Source: Chiloscyllium plagiosum (taxonomy: Eukaryota). Taken from it: DNA of 24,187 bases. Below the pieces are notes generated by a model. The model was not told the DNA's origin and searched no databases. It saw nothing but the letters and a program-made list of their open reading frames with translations. A program made the position numbers and the translations under genes. Location: positions 634,264 through 658,450 of the forward strand of contig NC_057759.1 in NCBI RefSeq assembly GCF_004010195.1, read 5' to 3'. Of the stretch, positions 3,365-16,659 are shown one piece after another. Every line of letters starts with the position of its first letter. Position 1 is the stretch's first letter.

Positions 3365-6300
3365 AAAACACGAACAACTGCCAACAGGGTGGTTGTCATA
3401 GGAAATTTCAATTTTCGCAACAATGACTGGAATTCACCTACTGTTCGACGAGTGAAACATAACTTGTAAGGAGCATCCAAGGAGGCTTTTCTAAAGGAAC
3501 ATGTAAATAGCCCAGTTTGGGGAGGGGCCATACAGGGTCTGGTGTTGGGAATTGAGCAGTTCCACGTGTTTGAAGTCTCAGGAGGGGATTACGTTGGGAA
3601 TAGTTATCACAATTCCATAAAGTTTAGCATACTCATGGACAAAGACAAGAATGGTCCGAAAGGAAGAGTGCTAAATTGGGAGATGGCCAAAATTCGGCAG
3701 GAGCTGTAAAATATAGATTGGGAGAAGCTGTTTGAAGGGAAATCCACATGCAATATATGAGACGCTTTGAAACAGAGGTTGATTAGAGTTCATGAGAGAT
3801 ATGTTCCTGTGAAAATAAGGGATAGAAATGGCAAGATTAGGGAACTATGGATGACAGGTGAATTTGTGAGACTACCTAAGAAGGAAAAGGATCATCCTTA
3901 AGATTGAGTTAACTGAAGTCAGACAAAGCCTTTGAAGAATATTGAGAATGTAAATACAATCTGAAACGAGGAATTAGGAGGGCTAAAAGAGATATATCCT
4001 TAGTGAACATGGTTAAGGAAAATCTCAAATCCTTTTATACATATATAAGGAGCAAGAGGGGAACTAGGGAAAGGGTTGGCCCACTCAAGGACAGAGCACG
4101 AAGTCATGCACGGAGTCAGAGAAAAGGATCGAGACTCTTAATGAGTACTTTGCATCAGTATTCACCGAGGAGAGGGGCATAGCGGATGTTGAGGTTAGGG
4201 ATAGATCTTTATTTACTCAATGTCAGGCCTGCAAAAGGAGGGAGGAAGTGTTCTGTATTCCAAAAGACATTACGGTGGACACGTTCCCAGGTGCAGATGG
4301 GATTTTTCCCAGTATGCTGAAGGAAGCGAGAGAGGAAACAGTTTGGACTTTAACAGATATCTTTGTAGCATCCCTGATGATGGAAGAGGTCTCAGAGGAC
4401 GGGAGAATCCCTAACGTAGTCCCTTTGTTTAACAAGGGTAGCAAGGAAAATCCAGGTAATTACAGAACTGTAAGCCTGACGTCAGTCGTCGAGAAGCTAC
4501 TGGAGAAGATACTAAGGTATAGGATATATAACCATTTGAAATAAACTGGGCTTATCAGTGATCGGCTGCATGGTTTTGCGCAAGGAAGGTCACGTCTTAC
4601 AAAGTTATAGAGTTCTTTGAAGAGGTGACAAAGTTGATTGATGAGGGAAGGGATGCAGACGTCGTATACATGGACTATAGTAAGGCGTTTGATAAAGGTC
4701 TCCATGGTAGGCTAATGAAAAAGCTGAAGTCTCATAGTGTCCAGGGTGTTCTGACGAGATAGATAGATAATTGATTGGGTAAGATCAATCTCCAAGATTG
4801 ATAAATTGATTGAGTAGCAGTGGAAGGGAGCTTCTCAAAATGGAGACCTCTGACCAGTGGTGTACCACAGGTATCCGTGCTGGGACCACTCATATTTGGG
4901 ATATATATATATATAAATGATTTGGAGGAAGGTGTAGATTGTCTCACTAGCAAGTTTACAGATGACACTCAGGTTGGTGGAGTAGAAGATAGTGAATGGG
5001 ACTGTCAGGGAGTATAGCAGAAGAAAGGTAGATTGGAGACTTGAGCAGAGAAATGGCAGATGGAGTTCAATACAAACAGATTCAAGGTAATGCATTTTGG
5101 AAGATGCAACTCAAGAGAGAACTATACAGTAATTGGAAACGCCCGGGGGGAAATTGATGTGCAGAGAGATCTGGGTGTATAGGTCCTTTATTCCCTGAAG
5201 GTGGCAATGCAGGTCAGTAGAGTGTTCAAGAAGGCATGTGGAATGCTTTCCTTCATTGGACGGGGTAATGAGTGCAGGAGTTGGCAGGTCGTATTACAGT
5301 TAAGACCGTGTTGCTGGAAAAGCACAACAGGTCAGGCATTATCCGAGGAGCATGAGAATCGACGTTTTGGGCCGGAGCTCATGATTAGAAATGAAGCTTG
5401 CAGCCTCGGGGTGGAGAGAAAATTGGGAGGGACGTGGGGCTGGGGAGAAGGTAACTAAGAGTGCAATAGGTGGATGGAGGTGGAAGTAAAGGTGATAGGT
5501 ATGAGCGGAGGGTGGAGTGGACAGGTGGGAAGGAAGATTGATAGGTTGGACATGTCGTGAGGACAGAGCTGAGCTTGAAAGTTGGAACTGGGGTAAGGTA
5601 GGGGGAGGGGAAATGAGGAAACTGTTGAAGTTCATATTGATGCCCTGGGGTTGAAGGTTACCGAAGAAGATCTTCCACATCGAGAACCTTCAAACATAGG
5701 ACAATAATGTGGACTTCACCAGTTTCCTGGTTTCCTCTACGGCCACGTTACCCCAGTTCCAAACTTAAGCTCAGACCCGTCCTCATGACCTGTCCCACCT
5801 GTCAATATTCCTTCCCAACTATCTGCTTCATCCTCCTCTCCGGCCTATCACCTTCACTCCCACCTCCATCCACCTATTGCACTCTTAGCTACCTTCTCCC
5901 TAACCGCACACCCTCCACCCGAGAGGCTCCGAGCCTCATTGCTATTGAAGTGCTTCAGCCATAAATGTCGATTCTCCTGCTCCTCGGATGCTGCCTGACT
6001 TGTTGCGCTTTTCTAGCAATACACTCTCAACTCTTACCTTCGCATCTGTAGACCTCACTTTCTCCTTGGTCATATTACAGTTGTTCATGACTTTGGTTCG
6101 GCCACATTTGGAATACTGCATACAGTTTGGTAGCCACAATACCAAAAGGATGTAGATGCTTTGGAAATAATGCAAAGGAGTTTCACCAGGCTGTTGCCTG
6201 CTATGAGGTGTTCGTTGTGAGGAGAGATTGAGTAGATTAGGATTGTGTCCATTGGAAAGAAGGAGACTGGGGGAGGGAACCTGATTGAGGCCTACAAAAT

Positions 6301-7396: not shown

Positions 7397-7445
7397 TATT
7401 TGTTAATTGGGCAACATCTGACTAATGTTGCCCAATTAACAAATA
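7397..7445. repeat. Perfect 21-bp inverted repeat with 7-nt spacer
   Basis: tatttgttaattgggcaacat-ctgacta-atgttgcccaattaacaaata. Confidence 0.95.
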
Positions 7446-8452: not shown

Positions 8453-9556
8453 TTAATATTCCACTTCTCTGGAGATAAATGACAACATTGCATTTGCTAT
8501 CTTAATCACGGATTCAACCTGCATGTTTAACTTTAGAGAATCCTCGACTAGCACTCCCAAATCCTTTTGTACTTTGGCTTTATGAATTTTCTCACCGGTT
8601 AGAAAGTAGTCCATGTTTGTATTCTTTTTTCCAAAGTGCAAGACCTCGCATTTTCTCACATTGAACTTCATCAGCCATTTCCTGGACCACTCTCCCAAAC
8701 TATCTCGATCCTTCTGCAGCCTCCCCACTTCCTCAGTCCTACTTGGGTGTCCACCTAACTTCGTATCATTGGCAAACGTCGTTAGAATGTCCCCAGTCCC
8801 TTCATCAAGATCATTAATATGTAACGTGAACAGCTGCGGCCCCAACACTGAACCCTGTGGGACACCGCTTGTCACCGGCTGCCATTCCAAAAAAGAACCT
8901 TTTATCCCAACTCTCTGCCTTCTCTCCGACAGCCAATACTCAATCCATGCCAGTAGCTCACCTCGAACACCATCGGCCCTCACTTTACTCAGCAGCCTCC
9001 CGTGTGGCACCTTATCAAAGGCCTTTTGGAAGTCTAGATAGACCACATCCACTGGGTTTCCCTGGTCTAACCTACTTGTCACCACTTCAAAGAATTCTAA
9101 CAGGTTTTTCAGGCACGACCACCCCTTACTAAATCCATGTTGAATTGTTCTAATCCGACCCTGCTGTTGCAAGAATTTAAAAACCTCATCCTTAACGATG
9201 GATTCTAGAATTTTATGAACAACCGAGGTTAGGCTAATTGGCCTATGACTTTCCATCTTTTGTCTTGATCCTTTCTTGAACAAGTGGGTTACAACAGCAA
9301 TCTTCCAATCATCCTGGACTTTCCCTGACTCCAGTGACTTTTGAAAGATCTCAACCAACACCTCTGCTATTTCCTCAGCCACCTCCCTTAGAACTCTAGG
9401 ATGTAACCCATCGGGGCCAGGAGATTGGTCAATTTTAAGATCTTTTAGCTTTTCTAGCACTATCTCTTTTGTAATGGCAACCATGCTCAACTCAGCCCCC
9501 TGACTCCATGACTTTTGAAAGATCTCAACCAACACCTCTGCTATTTCCTCAGCCAC
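8453..9556 (-). pseudogene. CR1 ORF2 reverse transcriptase domain, open for 367 aa but with a mutated catalytic motif
   Basis: SPGPDGLHPRVL, RPISLTS, QHGF, YLDFQKAFDKV, SGVPQGSVLGPQLF. The FADD motif reads FANDTK. Confidence 0.95.
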
Positions 9557-9671
9557 CTCCCTTAGAACTCTAGGATGTAACCCATCGGGGCCAGGAGATT
9601 GGTCAATTTTAGCTTTTCTAGCACTATCTCTTTTGTAATGGCAACCATGCTCAACTCAGCCCCCTGACTCC
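9335..9671. repeat. ~174-bp tandem duplication inside CR1 ORF2
   Basis: Copy 1 9335-9507, copy 2 9509-9671 (lacks 10 bp, aagatctttt). Microhomology ccctgactcc at the junctions. Confidence 0.95.
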
Positions 9672-10152
9672 CTTTAATTGTTGGGATATTACTCATGTCT
9701 TCCACTGTGAAGACTGATGCAAAGTACTCCAGCCATTTCCTTATCTCCCATCACTAGTCTTCCAGCATCAGTTTTATGTGGCCCAATGTCTACTTTTGGC
9801 TGTCGTTTGTTTCTTATGTATTGAAAGAAACTTTTACTATCATTTCTAATATTACTGGCTAGCCTACCTTCATATTTGATCCTCTCCTTCCTTATTTCTC
9901 TCTTTGTTATCCTCTGTTTTTTTTTTGTAGCCTTCCCAATCTTCTGATTTCCCAGTGCTCTTGGCCACTTTATAGAATCTCTCTTTTTCTTGAATACATT
10001 TCTTGACTTCCTATGTCAGCCATCGATGTCTAATCCCTCCCCGGATAATCTTTCTTTTCTTGGGGATGAACCTCTGTACTGTGTCCTCAATTATACCCAC
10101 AAACTCCTGCCCTTTTTGCCCTACTGTCTTCCCTGCTAGGCTCTGCTTCCAG

Positions 10153-10342
10153 GAGAAAGTGAGGTCTGCAGATGCTGGAGATCAGAGCTGGAAATGTGTT
10201 GCTGGAAAAGCGCAGCAGGTCAGGCAGCATCCAGGGAACAGGAGAATCGACGTTTCCTGAAGAAGGGCTTATGCCCGAAACGTCGATTCTCCTGTTCCCT
10301 GGATGCTGCCTGACTTGCTGCGCTTTTCCAGCAACACATTTC
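10153..10342. mobile_element. 190-bp fold-back Penelope-like terminal-repeat insertion with perfect 15-bp TSD
   Basis: TSD aggctctgcttccag at 10138-10152 and 10343-10357. Inverted arms 10191-10256 and 10277-10342 (66 bp, 1 mismatch). Confidence 0.92.
10254..10288 (+). ncRNA. Minimal type I hammerhead ribozyme motif (PLE-associated)
   Basis: CTGAAGA (10257-10263), A, stem II GGGC-TTAT-GCCC, GAAA (10277-10280), CGTC with palindromic ACGT and a GUC cleavage triplet. Helix I is weak. Confidence 0.7.
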
Positions 10343-10418
10343 AGGCTCTGCTTCCAGTCGATTTTCGTCAGTTCCTCTCTCATGCCCTCATAGTTGCCTT
10401 TGTTTAACTGTAACACCA

Positions 10419-11400
10419 TTACGTCCGATTTTGCCTTCTCTCTCTTTCAAACTGCGGACTGAACTCTATCATATTATGATCGCTGCTTCCTAAGTGTTCC
10501 CTTACTTTAAGATCTTTTATAAAGTCTGTTTCATTACATAGCACTAGGTCCATAATAGCCTGCTCCCATGTGGGCTCCATGACAAGCTGTTCCAAAAAGC
10601 CATCCTGTAAGCATTCCAAGAATTCCCTTTCTTTGGATCCACTGGCAACATTATTTACCCAGTCCACCTGCATATTGAAGTATCCCATGATCACCGTGAC
10701 TTTGCCTTTTCTATTTCCCGGTACATGTTGTTGCGCCTCTGGTCCTGACCACTGTTAGGAGGTCTGTACATAACTCCCATTATGATTTTTTTTCCTTTGT
10801 GGTTCCTCAATTCCACCCACACAGACTCCACATCATCCGATCCTATGTCATTCAGTGCCATAGATTTAATTTTGTTCTTAACTAACAAGGCAACCCCGCC
10901 CCCTCTGCGCACCTCCCTGTCTTTTCGATAAGTTGTAGATTAGGTTAGATTGCTTACAGTGTGGAAACACACCCTTCGGTCCAACAAGTCCACACTGACC
11001 CGCCGAAGCGCAACCCACCCAGACCCATTCCCCTACATTTACCCCTTCATCTAACACTACGGGCAATTTAGCACGGCCAATTCACCTAACCTGCACATTC
11101 TTAGATTGTGGGAGGAAACCGGAGCATCCGGAGGAAACCACGCAGACACGGGGAGAATGTGCAAACTCCACACAGAGTCGCCTGAGGCGGCAATTGAACC
11201 CGGATCTCTAGCACTGTGAGGCACTGTGCCACCATGCCACCCACTATGTTTAACTCCCAGTCCCGAACCCCCTGTAACCATGTCTCTGTGATGCCTACCA
11301 CATCATAATCATTCACGATGATCTGTGCCATTAGTTCATCTACTTTGTTACGAATCTACGAACATTCAGGTAAAGTGCCTTAATGCTAACATTCTTACCA
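10419..11400 (-). pseudogene. CR1 ORF2 endonuclease domain (fragmented, SINE-interrupted)
   Basis: LYLNVR, YDVVGITETWL, GGGVALLVK, GVMYRPPNS, MGYFN..DW, DLVLCN, LGSSDHNMIEF. Confidence 0.92.
10936..11242 (-). mobile_element. tRNA-derived HE1/V-SINE-type SINE
   Basis: Minus strand: gggtggcatggtggcacagtg head (A-box region shortened), B-box-like ggttcaattgc, V-domain gagtttgcacattctccccgtgtctgcgtgg..ggtttcctccca, CR1-like 3' tail gaccgaaggg..ctgtaagcaatctaacctaatcta. Confidence 0.92.
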
Positions 11401-11804
11401 TTGGAGATATTGGAAGTCATAAGACGTCCTAAGTTATCCTTCCTTTTTGTTGCATTCCTAATCTGCCTCAAGCTTAAATCCACCTGCATACATGCTATTC
11501 TCCTGCTTATCTTTTCATTTAACTCCATACTCCCTGTCGCTTTCACTTTCCCTTCCCCCCAATTCAGAAGTTTAAAGTCCTACTGACCACCCTATTTATC
11601 CTCTTCGCTAGAACATTGGTACCAAATCACTTCAGGCGGAGACATTCCCAACGGTACAGATCCCCCCTCCCCCAGGTTCCAAAACTGATGTCAATGCCCC
11701 ATGAAATGGAATCCCTCTTTCCTACACCAACCCCTTAGCCACGTGTTTACTTTCCTAATTTTCTTATCCCTATGCCAATTGGCACGTGGCTCGGGCAGTA
11801 ATCC

Positions 11805-12352
11805 CAGGACACCAACTCGTGGAATGTTTCAGAGAACATCTTTGAGACACACACACCAAACACACCCACCACCTTGTGGCCCATTATGTCAACTCACCAT
11901 CTCACTTTGCCAAGCATACGCAAGTCTTGGACATTCTCCAACGCCAAATCTAAACCACTCGATGCATGGAAGAAGAACACCTCATCTTCCGCGTACGGAC
12001 CTTCACCCACACGACAACAATTTCGACTTCGGCAATTTCCTCATCTCCATTCCTCCCATCTCATTCCAGATCCAAACATCAAACCACGGCCGTTGTGAAC
12101 TGTCCTATTTGTCCATCTTCCTTCCCACCTATCCGTTCCATGCCTGCCACATGAGCTATCACTATCACCCCTCCACCTTCATCTAACTTTCGACTTCCCA
12201 CCTACTTCCCCACCACACCCACCCTTCTACCTAGTTTCCAGCTCTCTTCCAGATCCACGTTCCTGCTGAAAGGCTTATTTCCAAGAAGTCGACTCTTCTG
12301 CTCATTGGATACAGCCTGACCTGTTATACTTTTCCAACCCAGCACTTCTCGA
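11805..12352 (+). mobile_element. Penelope-like element 3' fragment (GIY-YIG endonuclease C-half + terminal repeat)
   Basis: ECFREHL*..LVAHYVNSPSH..QVL..MEEEHLIFR, followed by a decayed terminal repeat (ctgctgaaaggc..gtcgactctt..gcctgacctg..ttttcc) homologous to 10257-10342. Confidence 0.85.
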
Positions 12353-13280: not shown

Positions 13281-14600
13281 CTTTTAGTATTGTGCAATGG
13301 ACACAACGTTGTAAATGAACAATTCCAGCTTCTACTTAAGCGTCTTTCGTGGCTGATTGGACTCATTCTATCCTTTACGATTAGGTGAATATTCTCCTGG
13401 CATTCCATTATTATACTCTTGCTGATCAGCATGTCCTGCTCCTTTTCCTGAGCAATCTGGTCGAATTCCAAAAGTCCTCGCTTGTTGCGCTATGAGAGAT
13501 TTGAATGCTTATGCAATCATCCTGCTACAATATCACATTTCAAATGCAGAAGGCTCTCCTCGTGTTTCTCCATAACAGGCATAAGATAGTGAACAATCTC
13601 CTCCTGTATACTGAAATGGAATTGAGGGAGTGATTGATTTTCTCACAAGCCCATATAACAGACCCGTGGCTGTATCATGTGACCCTTTCCTGTAAAACGG
13701 AACTCTCAAGCAGTTTTGTGTGTGGCAATGACGCTCCTATATCGAAGTTATGGTGTGCTTGTTTTATTTTTTTCCCAACAGGATTTGTAAAAGACAGAGA
13801 TTCTGGCCTGTCTGAAGTAGAGACTTTGATTATGAAGGCGACAATCGTGAAAAGAACTTCTGGATTGTTATGAAAACACTTGTGATACGAAAGTAGAGGG
13901 ACCAGTTCTACCAGATCAGGGATTCTTCTAGTTTGCTTTGTTTTAGCTGGGGTTCCTGAGAAGCTGCTGGGGGAAAAAAACGTGTTTCCACGTTTCAGCC
14001 AATGATCCCTAGCTGACGATCTCTGCTTTCTCCCTCCTCTGTAAGAACATTTGGTATTTCAACTTATCTTTTTTGAATAAGAGTGCGTTTAAGGGATGTT
14101 GTAGGAAATGTTAATTCTGTTGTAGCAATCAGTTGAGGGAATAATCTTGCAGTTGCTTCGAATGCCCTTTAGTGGGGAGACGAAATCTGTACACACTTCT
14201 CCAGATGTGATCTCAGTAAGATCCTCTCCACATGCAGCAACACTTTATCAGCCTGCTGTAGGCTTTCCACCCAATGTCTCAGCTGTCTGGAGGAATGCAC
14301 AGCATTCTTGGAAGATCCTTGTCCTTCTCTACTGCACCTGCATAACGAGTCATCTGATGAAAATATCGCAATGACGCTTGAAATTATCCAATAGGATGTG
14401 GCGAGATCATCTCAATATAGGCTTCACCAAATATCTCACCTGAATCTACCATTAATCCCCGCAGAGCCCACGTTATTCGGATTTTACTGAAGGTGGTCAG
14501 GGTAGCTGAGGAACAGCAAGGAGAAGCAAACATTGATGGGAATTATGTATCAAAGTCAAACCAACAATACAAACATTTGGCATGTTGTGAAACAGGAATG

Positions 14601-14811
14601 ATATGGAGGTGCCGGTGTTGGACTAGGGAAGAAAAAGTTAAAAATCACACAACAACAGGTTATTGTCTAACACGATTATTTGGAAGCAATAGCTTTCGGA
14701 GCGTTGCTCCTTCATCACATAGCTGTGGAGCAAGATCATAAGACAGAACATGTATCTAAAATATTACTGTGTCTTTCAACTGAAACGATATATTGTTTTG
14801 TGATTTTTTAA
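14601..14811 (-). mobile_element. Terminal-repeat fragment of a second Penelope-like family with a mutated hammerhead motif
   Basis: Minus strand 14690-14718: gTGATGA-A-GGAGC-aac-GCTCC-GAAA-GCTA (first core C changed to G; AGCT palindrome). Flanks are unrelated to the 10257 family. Confidence 0.7.
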
Positions 14812-14879: not shown

Positions 14880-16428
14880 AACTGTGTGAATCAAAGTCAA
14901 TGCTAATGCTGGGAAAAATGTATTTCATGAGCATGTATGAGATGCTTTGTTTAAGCAGGATGTTGAGCGCCGAGCGAGAGATTATAAAATTTTAGGTTTG
15001 GTGTTGTGTGATCCGAATAGCTCGTTCAAAATACTGCTGTAAAGGAGTTTTTGGGACTAGTGATAATGATATTTTTATTTTTTTCTATTATACGTGAGGA
15101 CAAAATGGTTTGTATTATATTCTTGAAATAACGCTAATAAACCTGAGTCATGCATGGATTTAAGATATGAGATGCATTTTGGCTTCTTTGAATTGAAAAA
15201 TCCACGAAATAGATGTAATAGAAGACAACAATGTCTTTACTTATAGAAACAACCTAATTTGTAGAATAAACATACATTGCTCCAAGATGCAAACAGTAAA
15301 AGGGAAAGTTAGTTTAAAGATGGTTACCTAACGTTTAAAATTACATTAGATGAAAGGAAGTAGCTCAGATAAAATGCATATGCCGTGGTAAGCCATGGAT
15401 TTAGAGAAATGTAGGACCAGCAAAGAGGGACCAATAAATCAATAAGGAAAGTAAAAAGATAACAGGAATGCAAACTAACAGGAAACATAAAGATTGCCAA
15501 AAAATTTCCATCAATATTTGAAAGGGGAAAAAAAAGTGCAGTTCTAATATGGAACAGTGAATTTGCGGATAAATTAATTTATCGCAGAGAACAGAAATTA
15601 TAGCGAAATTTAACAGTTACGTTATGTCAATCTTCAGAAAGTAACATCCGGAAAATCTCCCAGAAATTATAAGCGACCATGGGAAATGGGTAACTAAAGA
15701 GTAAAACCAACTATATCAGTGACGTGGTAATATTTGGAAACTTGGTTGGATTGAGCATTAATATGTCTAACAGAGAAGATGTACTTCAGAGTAAATGTTT
15801 TGAGGAAGCAGCAATAAACATCTTAATTGTATTGGGCATCACTGTGTTATTTTCCAATACATTCTACAAAAGCAGGAAGCTAATCTGTAGAACTTGAAGT
15901 ATTCTGACGTTTAAAGAAGGAAAGACGAGGTAGAGTGGTGAGCTAAAGATCAGTTAACTTGTCATTCTGTGTAGGGAATCTATTGGAATCTATGACAGAG
16001 GATGTGATATTGGATATTGAGAAACTAACAGCAACGTTCTAAGAACTGTTATTGCATTCATGAAGAAAAATTTCATTATTGACAAACTTTTTGACATTTT
16101 CGAAGATGCACTTTTTGGATAGAGGTAATGGAGAAGTATGGATACCCAGGAGGACCTTTTTAAGAACTCCCAATGAAATAGCAAACATGATTAAAGCGAA
16201 TGGCATTGGGAAGGACATATGCAAATAGAAAGGTAAAAGTTAGGTCTACTTTCGTTTCAAGGGAATTGGAATATAGAAAAACAGACGTCCTGCAGCAGTT
16301 GAATAACGTTTTGGAGAGGCCGTGTTTGGAGTATTCTGCATAATTTTAGAGTCGCAATCTACGACAGAATGTACTGACCACCATTTGTCAGGTTAATCCC
16401 TCGGATGCTAATATTGTCTGATGAGGAA
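14880..16428 (+). mobile_element. Very old CR1 ORF2 relic with internal deletions
   Basis: Scattered motifs: ILGLVLCD ~14990, SVGNLLESM ~15970, LTNF ~16080, LERPCLEYSA ~16312, LSDEE ~16412. Confidence 0.7.
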
Positions 16429-16429
16429 A

Positions 16430-16570
16430 CTCGGCCCTTCATCAGGAAGGGGTTTTTTCCCGAAAGGTCGATTTTCCTGCTCCCCTGATGCTGCCTGACC
16501 TGCTGTGCTTTTTCAGCACCACTCTAACTTTAACTCTAATCTCCATCATCTGCAGCACCCATTTCTGCCC
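16430..16570 (+). mobile_element. Short Penelope-like terminal repeat with a small inverted 5' piece
   Basis: cggcccttcatcagg (antisense core) fused to gaaggggttttttcccgaaaggtcgattttcctgctcc..gatgctgcctgacctgctgtgc..ctgcag. Confidence 0.85.
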
Positions 16571-16659
16571 TGTGTCCTCTAAAGTTTCAAATAATGGGAG
16601 GTGTTCCCAGGCAAACTTGAAAATTTCACTCAAATTTGACTGACAAACACAGGGACACG

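Follow-up and report, generated by a model that had tools for sequence, protein, structure and literature searches.

A 220-base hairpin region of the Chiloscyllium plagiosum genome, at 10138–10357 of the analysed window (the whole stretch of 24,187 nt from contig NC_057759.1), is a real insertion in which two end pieces of a Penelope-like element (PLE) lie back to back. The reading we favour, with some reserve, is that it is a short head-to-head insertion into a LINE, produced in a single integration event, with reverse transcription primed from both nicked strands of the target, one at the outer and one at the inner start site of the element.

The insertion and its target site

The insert comprises 190 nt between two plus-strand copies of the repeat AGGCTCTGCTTCCAG, the left at 10138–10152 and the right at 10343–10357. 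The copies are identical at 15 of 15 positions, and identity extends on neither side. Exact 15-mers repeating within 1 kb occur at just three offsets in the window (164, 174, and 205), and for a given pair of ends ±5 nt such a duplication would arise by chance with a probability of about 1e-7. The last two letters of the left copy (10151–10152) also belong to the element, so the target duplication measures 13 nt if these two letters are taken as an overlap, or 15 nt if they were a match used in priming.

The left hairpin arm (10191–10256, minus strand) is an inverted element copy reaching from hammerhead position G12 to the tail-less end, and the right arm (10277–10342, plus strand) is a sense copy ending at the tail-less inner terminus. 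They are complementary at 65 of 66 positions (sole mismatch G10218/T10315), share a minority letter at 10191/10342, and enclose a 20-nt plus-strand spacer (10257–10276) made of CTGAAGA, an extra A and helix II. The region has a predicted folding energy of -169.0 kcal/mol (z = -19, none of 200 shuffles being equally good). It is nevertheless asymmetric, as the 40-nt PLE tail (10151–10190, minus strand), whose outer end is a sharp family terminus, occurs in the left arm only and is unpartnered. Read in element sense, the left arm spans 106 nt from hammerhead G12 to the outer family end, and the right arm (89 nt) starts 3 nt ahead of the core and stops at an inner end that falls 40 nt short of the outer one. 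The unit totals 192 nt and holds no ORF. At the turn, the trinucleotide TTC (10254–10256) ends the inverted arm and opens the native pre-core sequence; in runs from related organisms the native family sequence departs from the window before 10254 and behind 10256, and TTC is therefore a microhomology common to both arms. A preliminary description of this DNA had reported the perfect duplication, the arms with one mismatch and hammerhead letters in a loop running into the right arm, and had placed the inversion breakpoint inside the ribozyme; the sequence comparison and a motif scan bear out each of these points.

The host is a piece of non-LTR retrotransposon ORF2 (8570–10930, minus strand, limits approximate) identified by tblastn at 9010–8570 (E 1e-30; RVT_1 at E 0.007, below cut-off), which we take to be CR1-like. 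The insert lies upstream of the host's RT domain (RT similarity at 9010–8570). Removal of the insert and one repeat copy leaves an open frame with the DW-x5-GK spacing of a paralogous LINE at 3640–3830, whereas removal of both copies keeps the frame and loses this spacing. Because a single copy restores frame and spacing, the repeat is a true target site duplication (TSD). The insertion is probably recent, judging by one mismatch in 66 positions and a perfect TSD as compared to 76% arm identity and a 14/15 TSD in an older copy of the window. The host LINE also holds a perfect tandem duplication at 9335–9671 (blocks of 103 nt and 65 nt, offsets 174 and 164, 100% identical), which looks like a very recent duplication or an assembly slip, and a minus-strand insert of about 300 nt at 10941–11240 that is presumably SINE-like. 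Elsewhere, at 7397–7445 in AT-rich surroundings, a loop of 7 nt separates the arms of a perfect 21-nt inverted repeat.

Family membership and scattered turning points

Arm sequence is carried by four further loci in the window at 74–87% identity. One of them, a decayed single-orientation copy (11813–12350, plus strand), runs from a GIY-YIG C-terminus through the 3' UTR and the core to the tail-less end and thus ties the arms to a PLE ORF. In a full protein scan the ORF end (11804–12007) gave three matches, including P0002, a GIY-YIG-like protein piece (E 2.6e-5); the other two, tandem-repeat proteins, were set aside. For the decayed ORF end, Pfam returned no family and a word-indexed protein search no match. 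P0002 has 34 relatives, whale shark, devil ray and skate proteins among them, and five that were scanned match GIY-YIG in three cases (one above cut-off) and RVT_1 in two. The whale-shark protein P0012 (GIY-YIG above cut-off, RVT_1 at E 9e-5) aligns back to 11828–12084 and to the element at 5302–6067 at each of its two inner ends (E 4e-7, 4e-7, and 0.03); the longer window copies show the P0012 C-terminus continuing into sequence 74–87% like the arms. Since relatives of P0002 match GIY-YIG and RVT_1 and P0012 aligns back to the window, the family is an endonuclease-bearing (EN+) PLE; no PLE RT domain lies within the window. The species names of the relatives point to a cartilaginous fish as the probable host of the family. 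The PLE origin suggested in the preliminary description is thereby upheld.

When the six arms of the window are aligned, three end at the inner site and three reach the outer, tailed end. The outer end at 10151 is the same in the older window copy and in all four public runs, from three related organisms, that were mapped on 10040–10460 at 85% likeness (best share of words 0.54); 122, 1213, 571, and 244 records have loose ends before 10151, with a flank agreement of 0.34–0.46. Loose ends at 10192–10196 are a mixture of true inner ends and subfamily differences. The family is very abundant: in three contig runs the summed depth of the arm is 118–669 times that of the LINE flank, a figure that describes family abundance and not copy number. 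Pattern scans picked out 8 loci in viral, 2 in prokaryotic genome and 20 in metagenome collections; the 12 best matches to the insert among these 30 loci are 21–25 nt long, a length expected by chance.

By sequence comparison, the focal copy is the short, young form of a layout found again 4 kb away. The older insertion (5287–6082, unstranded) is mirrored, with the tail-less arm on the left and the tailed arm on the right. Its TSD (5287–5301 and 6068–6082, 15 nt) is identical at 14 of 15 positions, its arms of about 370 nt are 76% identical, and its turn is a zero-loop 10-nt palindrome, GAAGATCTTC, at 5666–5675 within the ORF end. The empty site is continuous with the frame of its own host, another LINE. 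A further decayed, tailed family copy lies at 16410–16575, where no TSD was identified; upstream of it, a sense core fragment, an antisense core fragment and then a sense copy starting from helix II form a tangle that would fit two or more template switches at the ribozyme.

Across the mapped runs, 288 joints of all kinds are counted, and at least 21 distinct ones are listed. Joints leading from inverted to sense arm number at least 17 distinct among those listed, with spacers of about -4 to 103 nt; this count omits 10187–10254 (opposite strands), 10183–10151, 10287–10254, and 10294–10254. The mapping reference lacks the native sequence before 10254, which censors longer arms, and an exact copy of the focal junction does not register as a joint, to which the count is thus blind. 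In four of the 17 listed joints the inverted arm reaches no further than the tail, in whole or in part (turns at 10174, 10178, 10189, and 10190). Sense-arm starts cluster at 10252–10266 in 12 of the 17, a hotspot that is suggestive only, given that the reference is cut at 10254 and starts past 10277 can map to the other arm. The focal junction is crossed exactly or nearly by three of 24 listed records (organisms B and C, without LINE flanks; depths 18.8, 52.4, and 4.9), two RNA-run contigs of run X15 have a junction 7 nt away at a summed depth of 6,440, and some joints of run X2 reach 6–20 times the depth of a single-copy-like record near the focal junction. On these three grounds, some junctions are recurrent or modestly amplified.

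Miniature inverted-repeat transposable elements (MITEs) are short, TSD-flanked elements; their terminal repeats are symmetric, their interior is fixed, and a transposase serves as their partner. The focal insert resembles them only in its shortness, inverted arms and TSD: its left arm overhangs by 40 nt, and at least 17 distinct turns among the joints listed from related organisms stand in place of a single interior and length. Because the sharp end at 10151 is combined with many different turning points, a fixed mini-element family is unlikely. The preliminary description had offered a dedicated, MITE-looking family as one option and had named beforehand a tabulation of breakpoints as the test that could refute it; on balance, the turns in related organisms are scattered, and in the window the layout recurs between arms of about 370 nt that turn within the ORF end. 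This option is therefore not supported, although a small subfamily is conceivable. The insert is also like non-LTR retrozymes, which according to the available text of a recent preprint are short, non-coding, hammerhead-bearing and PLE-derived (bioRxiv 10.64898/2026.07.22.740005). However, those are arranged head to tail with a hammerhead in every unit, whereas here there is one core and the arms are inverted.

The hammerhead core and its predicted locking

The minimal type I hammerhead core (10257–10284, plus strand) consists of CTGAAGA (10257–10263), an extra A (10264), helix II GGGC(TTAT)GCCC (10265–10276) and GAAAC/GTC (10277–10284), with a predicted cut after 10284. A relaxed hammerhead scan of both strands yields three matches in the window, of which the focal one alone combines a 4-bp helix II with a GTC cut triplet behind it. 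Positions C3–A9, G12–A14, A15.1–U16.1 and H17, the extra base after position 9 and a palindromic 15.2–16.2 are all present. This agrees with the earlier reading and with the motif description of metazoan PLE hammerheads, as far as it is given in the accessible sections of Cervera and De la Pena (2014; PMC4209133): the core, the extra base between 9 and 10.1, the G10.1–C11.1 pair and a palindromic ACGT serving for helix III without a loop are common to both. The same source noted pairs of opposite-strand motifs 100–700 bp apart. In contrast to its motifs, the focal helix I has two pairs instead of 4–5, helix II has four instead of the 7–8 of the S. mansoni families, and the cut strand lies in a 66-bp stem. 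The hammerhead had been called intact, which holds for the conserved core and fails for helix I, where two Watson-Crick pairs are followed by U.U and the 5' strand past 3 nt is replaced by the inverted arm, rather than forming 4–5 pairs with an accessible cut strand. In native copies an upstream A gives helix I one more pair, and a common variant at 10287 (6–33% of the contig-run depth) would bring helix I to a full 4 bp.

The covariance-model search proposed in the preliminary description did not recover the motif: at E ≤ 1, Rfam gives seven matches in the window, no hammerhead among them and all under the gathering score. Rfam may miss it because published minimal hammerheads are without helix III. 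Over the hairpin, the weak matches include three miRNA-precursor models of the seven and one bacterial sRNA, which score far under gathering and were rejected. A different piece on the minus strand at 14590–14720 combines TGATGA-A, a longer helix II and GAAAGCT with other downstream sequence and a changed first core base; we assume that it belongs to a second hammerhead-bearing family.

A plus-strand transcript of the region is predicted to form a 66-bp hairpin that buries GAAAC/GUC and does not self-cleave. In the predicted fold, 10277–10291 pair with the left arm at probabilities of at least 0.99, as anticipated from the letters alone, and a fold forced to keep the core open reaches -149.1 as against -169.0 kcal/mol, a cost of about 20 kcal/mol in which tertiary and dimer contacts are uncounted. 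As the left arm is transcribed first, locking would be co-transcriptional. A minus-strand transcript, in the direction of the host LINE, contains neither a CUGA box nor a catalytic core. In 2% of the reads of one raw RNA run no pile-up of read ends is seen anywhere, though its fragmented poly(A) library is unsuited to this purpose.

Locking may be regarded as a sound prediction of little consequence, for three reasons: minimal type I motifs of this kind are reported not to cleave as monomers and to cleave at a low level as dimers (relevant passages of PMC4209133), the ribozyme of a lizard PLE required protein, and insertion by that element proceeded without ribozyme cleavage (both in the available text of PMC11167929). 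Moreover, it looks incidental, because four of the 17 listed turns leave the whole core and cut site unpaired and most others start within the core and cut into it. The locked ribozyme is thus unlikely to be a switch and probably just reflects the point at which copying ended.

Two signals at the level of the family come from the mapped runs. Places with A>G and T>C stand to those with G>A and C>T across 10040–10460 at 47:64 and 30:37 in RNA or probable RNA runs as opposed to 15:44 and 10:34 in DNA runs (Fisher p about 0.03 each, on differing individuals, saturated DNA counts and non-independent places), a hint of A-to-I editing. In run X21, family reads derive from both strands, with about 60–64% in one direction per arm and 88% of the LINE flank on one strand; if the flank sets the orientation, the majority direction is the element's sense.

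Origin of the head-to-head layout

Long interspersed L1 elements are known to invert by twin priming, in which two target nicks start two cDNAs that meet at a microhomology joint, leaving an inverted junction within a TSD and an inversion without duplication. Unlike such products, the focal insert contains 66 nt twice, has fixed start sites as its ends and carries no poly(A). Among PLEs, an inverted pLTR with a one-sided 31-bp tail and TSDs of 8–10 bp is described as the typical Penelope structure in rotifers (Arkhipova et al., 2013; PMC3846280), and inverted, 5'-truncated partner copies with a tail of 30–40 bp are reported more generally (Craig et al., 2021; PMC8557442). The focal copy shares with these EN+ insertions, as far as the quoted texts describe them, the head-to-head arms, the TSD, a short overlap at the junction, a hammerhead in the terminal repeat and a tail on one arm, here of 40 nt. 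It differs in its TSD of 13–15 nt as compared to 8–10 bp in rotifers, in having no ORF and in a turn that falls within the ribozyme core. As its layout has already been published, there is nothing out of the ordinary about the locus, which is an unusually short and tidy case of a described PLE insertion pattern.

A closer parallel for the two ends is Poseidon PAc of Anolis carolinensis, in which a hammerhead is likewise followed by two termini bounding the tail (Frangieh et al., 2024; PMC11167929, available text, also for the following). The distance from the tailed end to the start of helix II is 118 nt in the focal copy, and the main PAc start site lies 111–118 nt from the ORF start, at the start of stem II; both share an AC-rich stretch at the inner end. 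The purified protein, a dimer by prediction, cleaves and extends both target strands and starts at two internal RNA sites bounding the tail. PAc is another family, however, studied in vitro, and it prefers AT-rich ATT targets whereas the focal target resembles the tail. A term search of the available text of PMC11167929 found no description of inverted insertions or TSDs, and open-access full text in PubMed Central and bioRxiv returned no account of this shark PLE family or of PLE twin priming.

On the favoured reading of priming from both nicks, staggered target nicks 13–15 nt apart would supply two primers. The left nick would prime a 106-nt cDNA from the tail end with a 2-nt match (AG/CU), and the right nick an 89-nt cDNA at the inner site, 40 nt upstream of the outer one. 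The outer cDNA would continue 66 nt beyond the inner site, either by displacing its partner from an RNA that both copy or by copying a second RNA. Both cDNAs would halt at the structured hammerhead and join via TTC/GAA, gaps being filled in. Displacement would account for a spacer on the tail-less arm, as seen in the focal copy, and for the minority letter 10191/10342 common to both arms. Tail-only inverted arms, found in related organisms, would be the expected product of one RNA primed at both sites. The focal copy is likely a dead end. An abortive PLE integration product, which the preliminary description had considered as another option, now finds support. The right TSD copy is similar to the beginning of the absent tail, a score reached by 19 of 48,344 window 15-mers (0.04%), eight of which are themselves TSDs or family copies. 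This likeness would possibly fit the need of the endonuclease for the tail in target recognition, reported in work cited by PMC11167929, although the older TSD shows four letters of likeness at most, a score that 9.8% of 15-mers attain. Homology-guided priming at the right end was rejected as a general rule, in view of the two mismatched terminal letters of the focal TSD and an older TSD unlike the tail, and is kept as a possible target preference only.

Priming at two sites is read from end products, no intermediate having been observed; the joints behind it come from three related organisms (21 distinct listed of 288), three of 24 listed records cross near the focal junction, some junctions are multi-copy, and the lizard protein favors AT-rich targets (PMC11167929, available text), which the focal target is not. 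Nor is it the published model, since the accessible parts of PMC3846280 prefer self-priming on an antisense template and report palindromes at inverted junctions, and those of PMC8557442 attribute the tail to resolution by the endonuclease. Applied here, antisense RNA or cDNA would fold back through GAA/TTC round helix II, and the endonuclease would trim one of two tails. Near-identical arms, including the minority letter 10191/10342, would follow readily, as would the shortness of the spacer in each window copy (20 nt and the zero-loop palindrome at 5666–5675). Such folding back is nonetheless unlikely: short of an extra cut it cannot yield a spacer that shares its sense with the tail-less arm, the tail cannot come from a strand that starts at the inner site, and as DNA the antisense end folds helix II alone (-4.0 kcal/mol) with no snap-back pairs. 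It also fits poorly with the spacers of 41–103 nt in 13 of the 17 listed joints and with the tail-only inverted arms in four, and the available text of PMC11167929 accounts for the tail by two start sites. Its product would still be an ordinary PLE product. An identical sequence would result if a longer head-to-head insertion, like that at 5287–6082, had later lost its center by microhomology-mediated deletion of an unstable palindrome. The longer form exists in the window, the focal turn has 3 nt of microhomology, and Penelope copies with microhomology deletions are reported (PMC3846280, same sections); yet the older long palindrome still has its center, the young focal copy has had less time, and short forms with many turns are common in the family, which makes later deletion quite improbable.

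We consider it very doubtful that the insert is a non-autonomous fold-back mini-element whose junction is fixed and which the PLE protein copies again, while its locked ribozyme keeps the RNA uncut. Both cis ends are present in the focal copy, three listed records cross at or near its junction alongside the deep X15 contigs (summed depth 6,440), and non-autonomous PLE derivatives are known (PMC8557442 and bioRxiv 10.64898/2026.07.22.740005, in their available parts). Against this stand the at least 17 different turns among the joints listed, the tiny depth of records across the focal junction relative to a family summed depth of 1e6–2e7, the presence of the junction in none of the four other family loci of the window, start sites needed by the protein that would be buried in the hairpin, and the tandem rather than inverted arrangement of the retrozymes described in the preprint. 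Comparably remote is a self-limiting satellite in which the turn is encoded by the hammerhead itself, TTC ahead of the core matching the complement of G12–A13–A14, so that stalled copying would repeatedly give a locked hairpin that the PLE protein re-copies and that feeds double-stranded RNA to editing and silencing. End products alone cannot fully separate priming at two sites, hairpin resolution, later deletion and a re-copied mini-element. A fold-back artefact of assembly or library preparation is barely credible. Fold-back chimeras do arise in sequencing, and none of the listed records bridges flank and insert at the focal locus; on the other hand, the TSD is perfect within a LINE frame, the arms differ by one mismatch, the asymmetric tail ends exactly at the family terminus, and the layout recurs in the nearby decayed copy and in other organisms.

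How PLEs produce head-to-head copies is stated to be undefined in the available text of PMC8557442. The focal copy is useful as a clean specimen: being young and set in a LINE frame, it allows the TSD, the two termini and the junction to be placed to the base. Cartilaginous fishes carry the family in an abundance that would permit a census. Priming from two start sites makes a countable prediction, namely a spacer on the tail-less arm and tail-only inverted arms, that sets it apart from snap-back and later deletion. Head-to-head PLE copies may, in addition, be a large source of double-stranded RNA.
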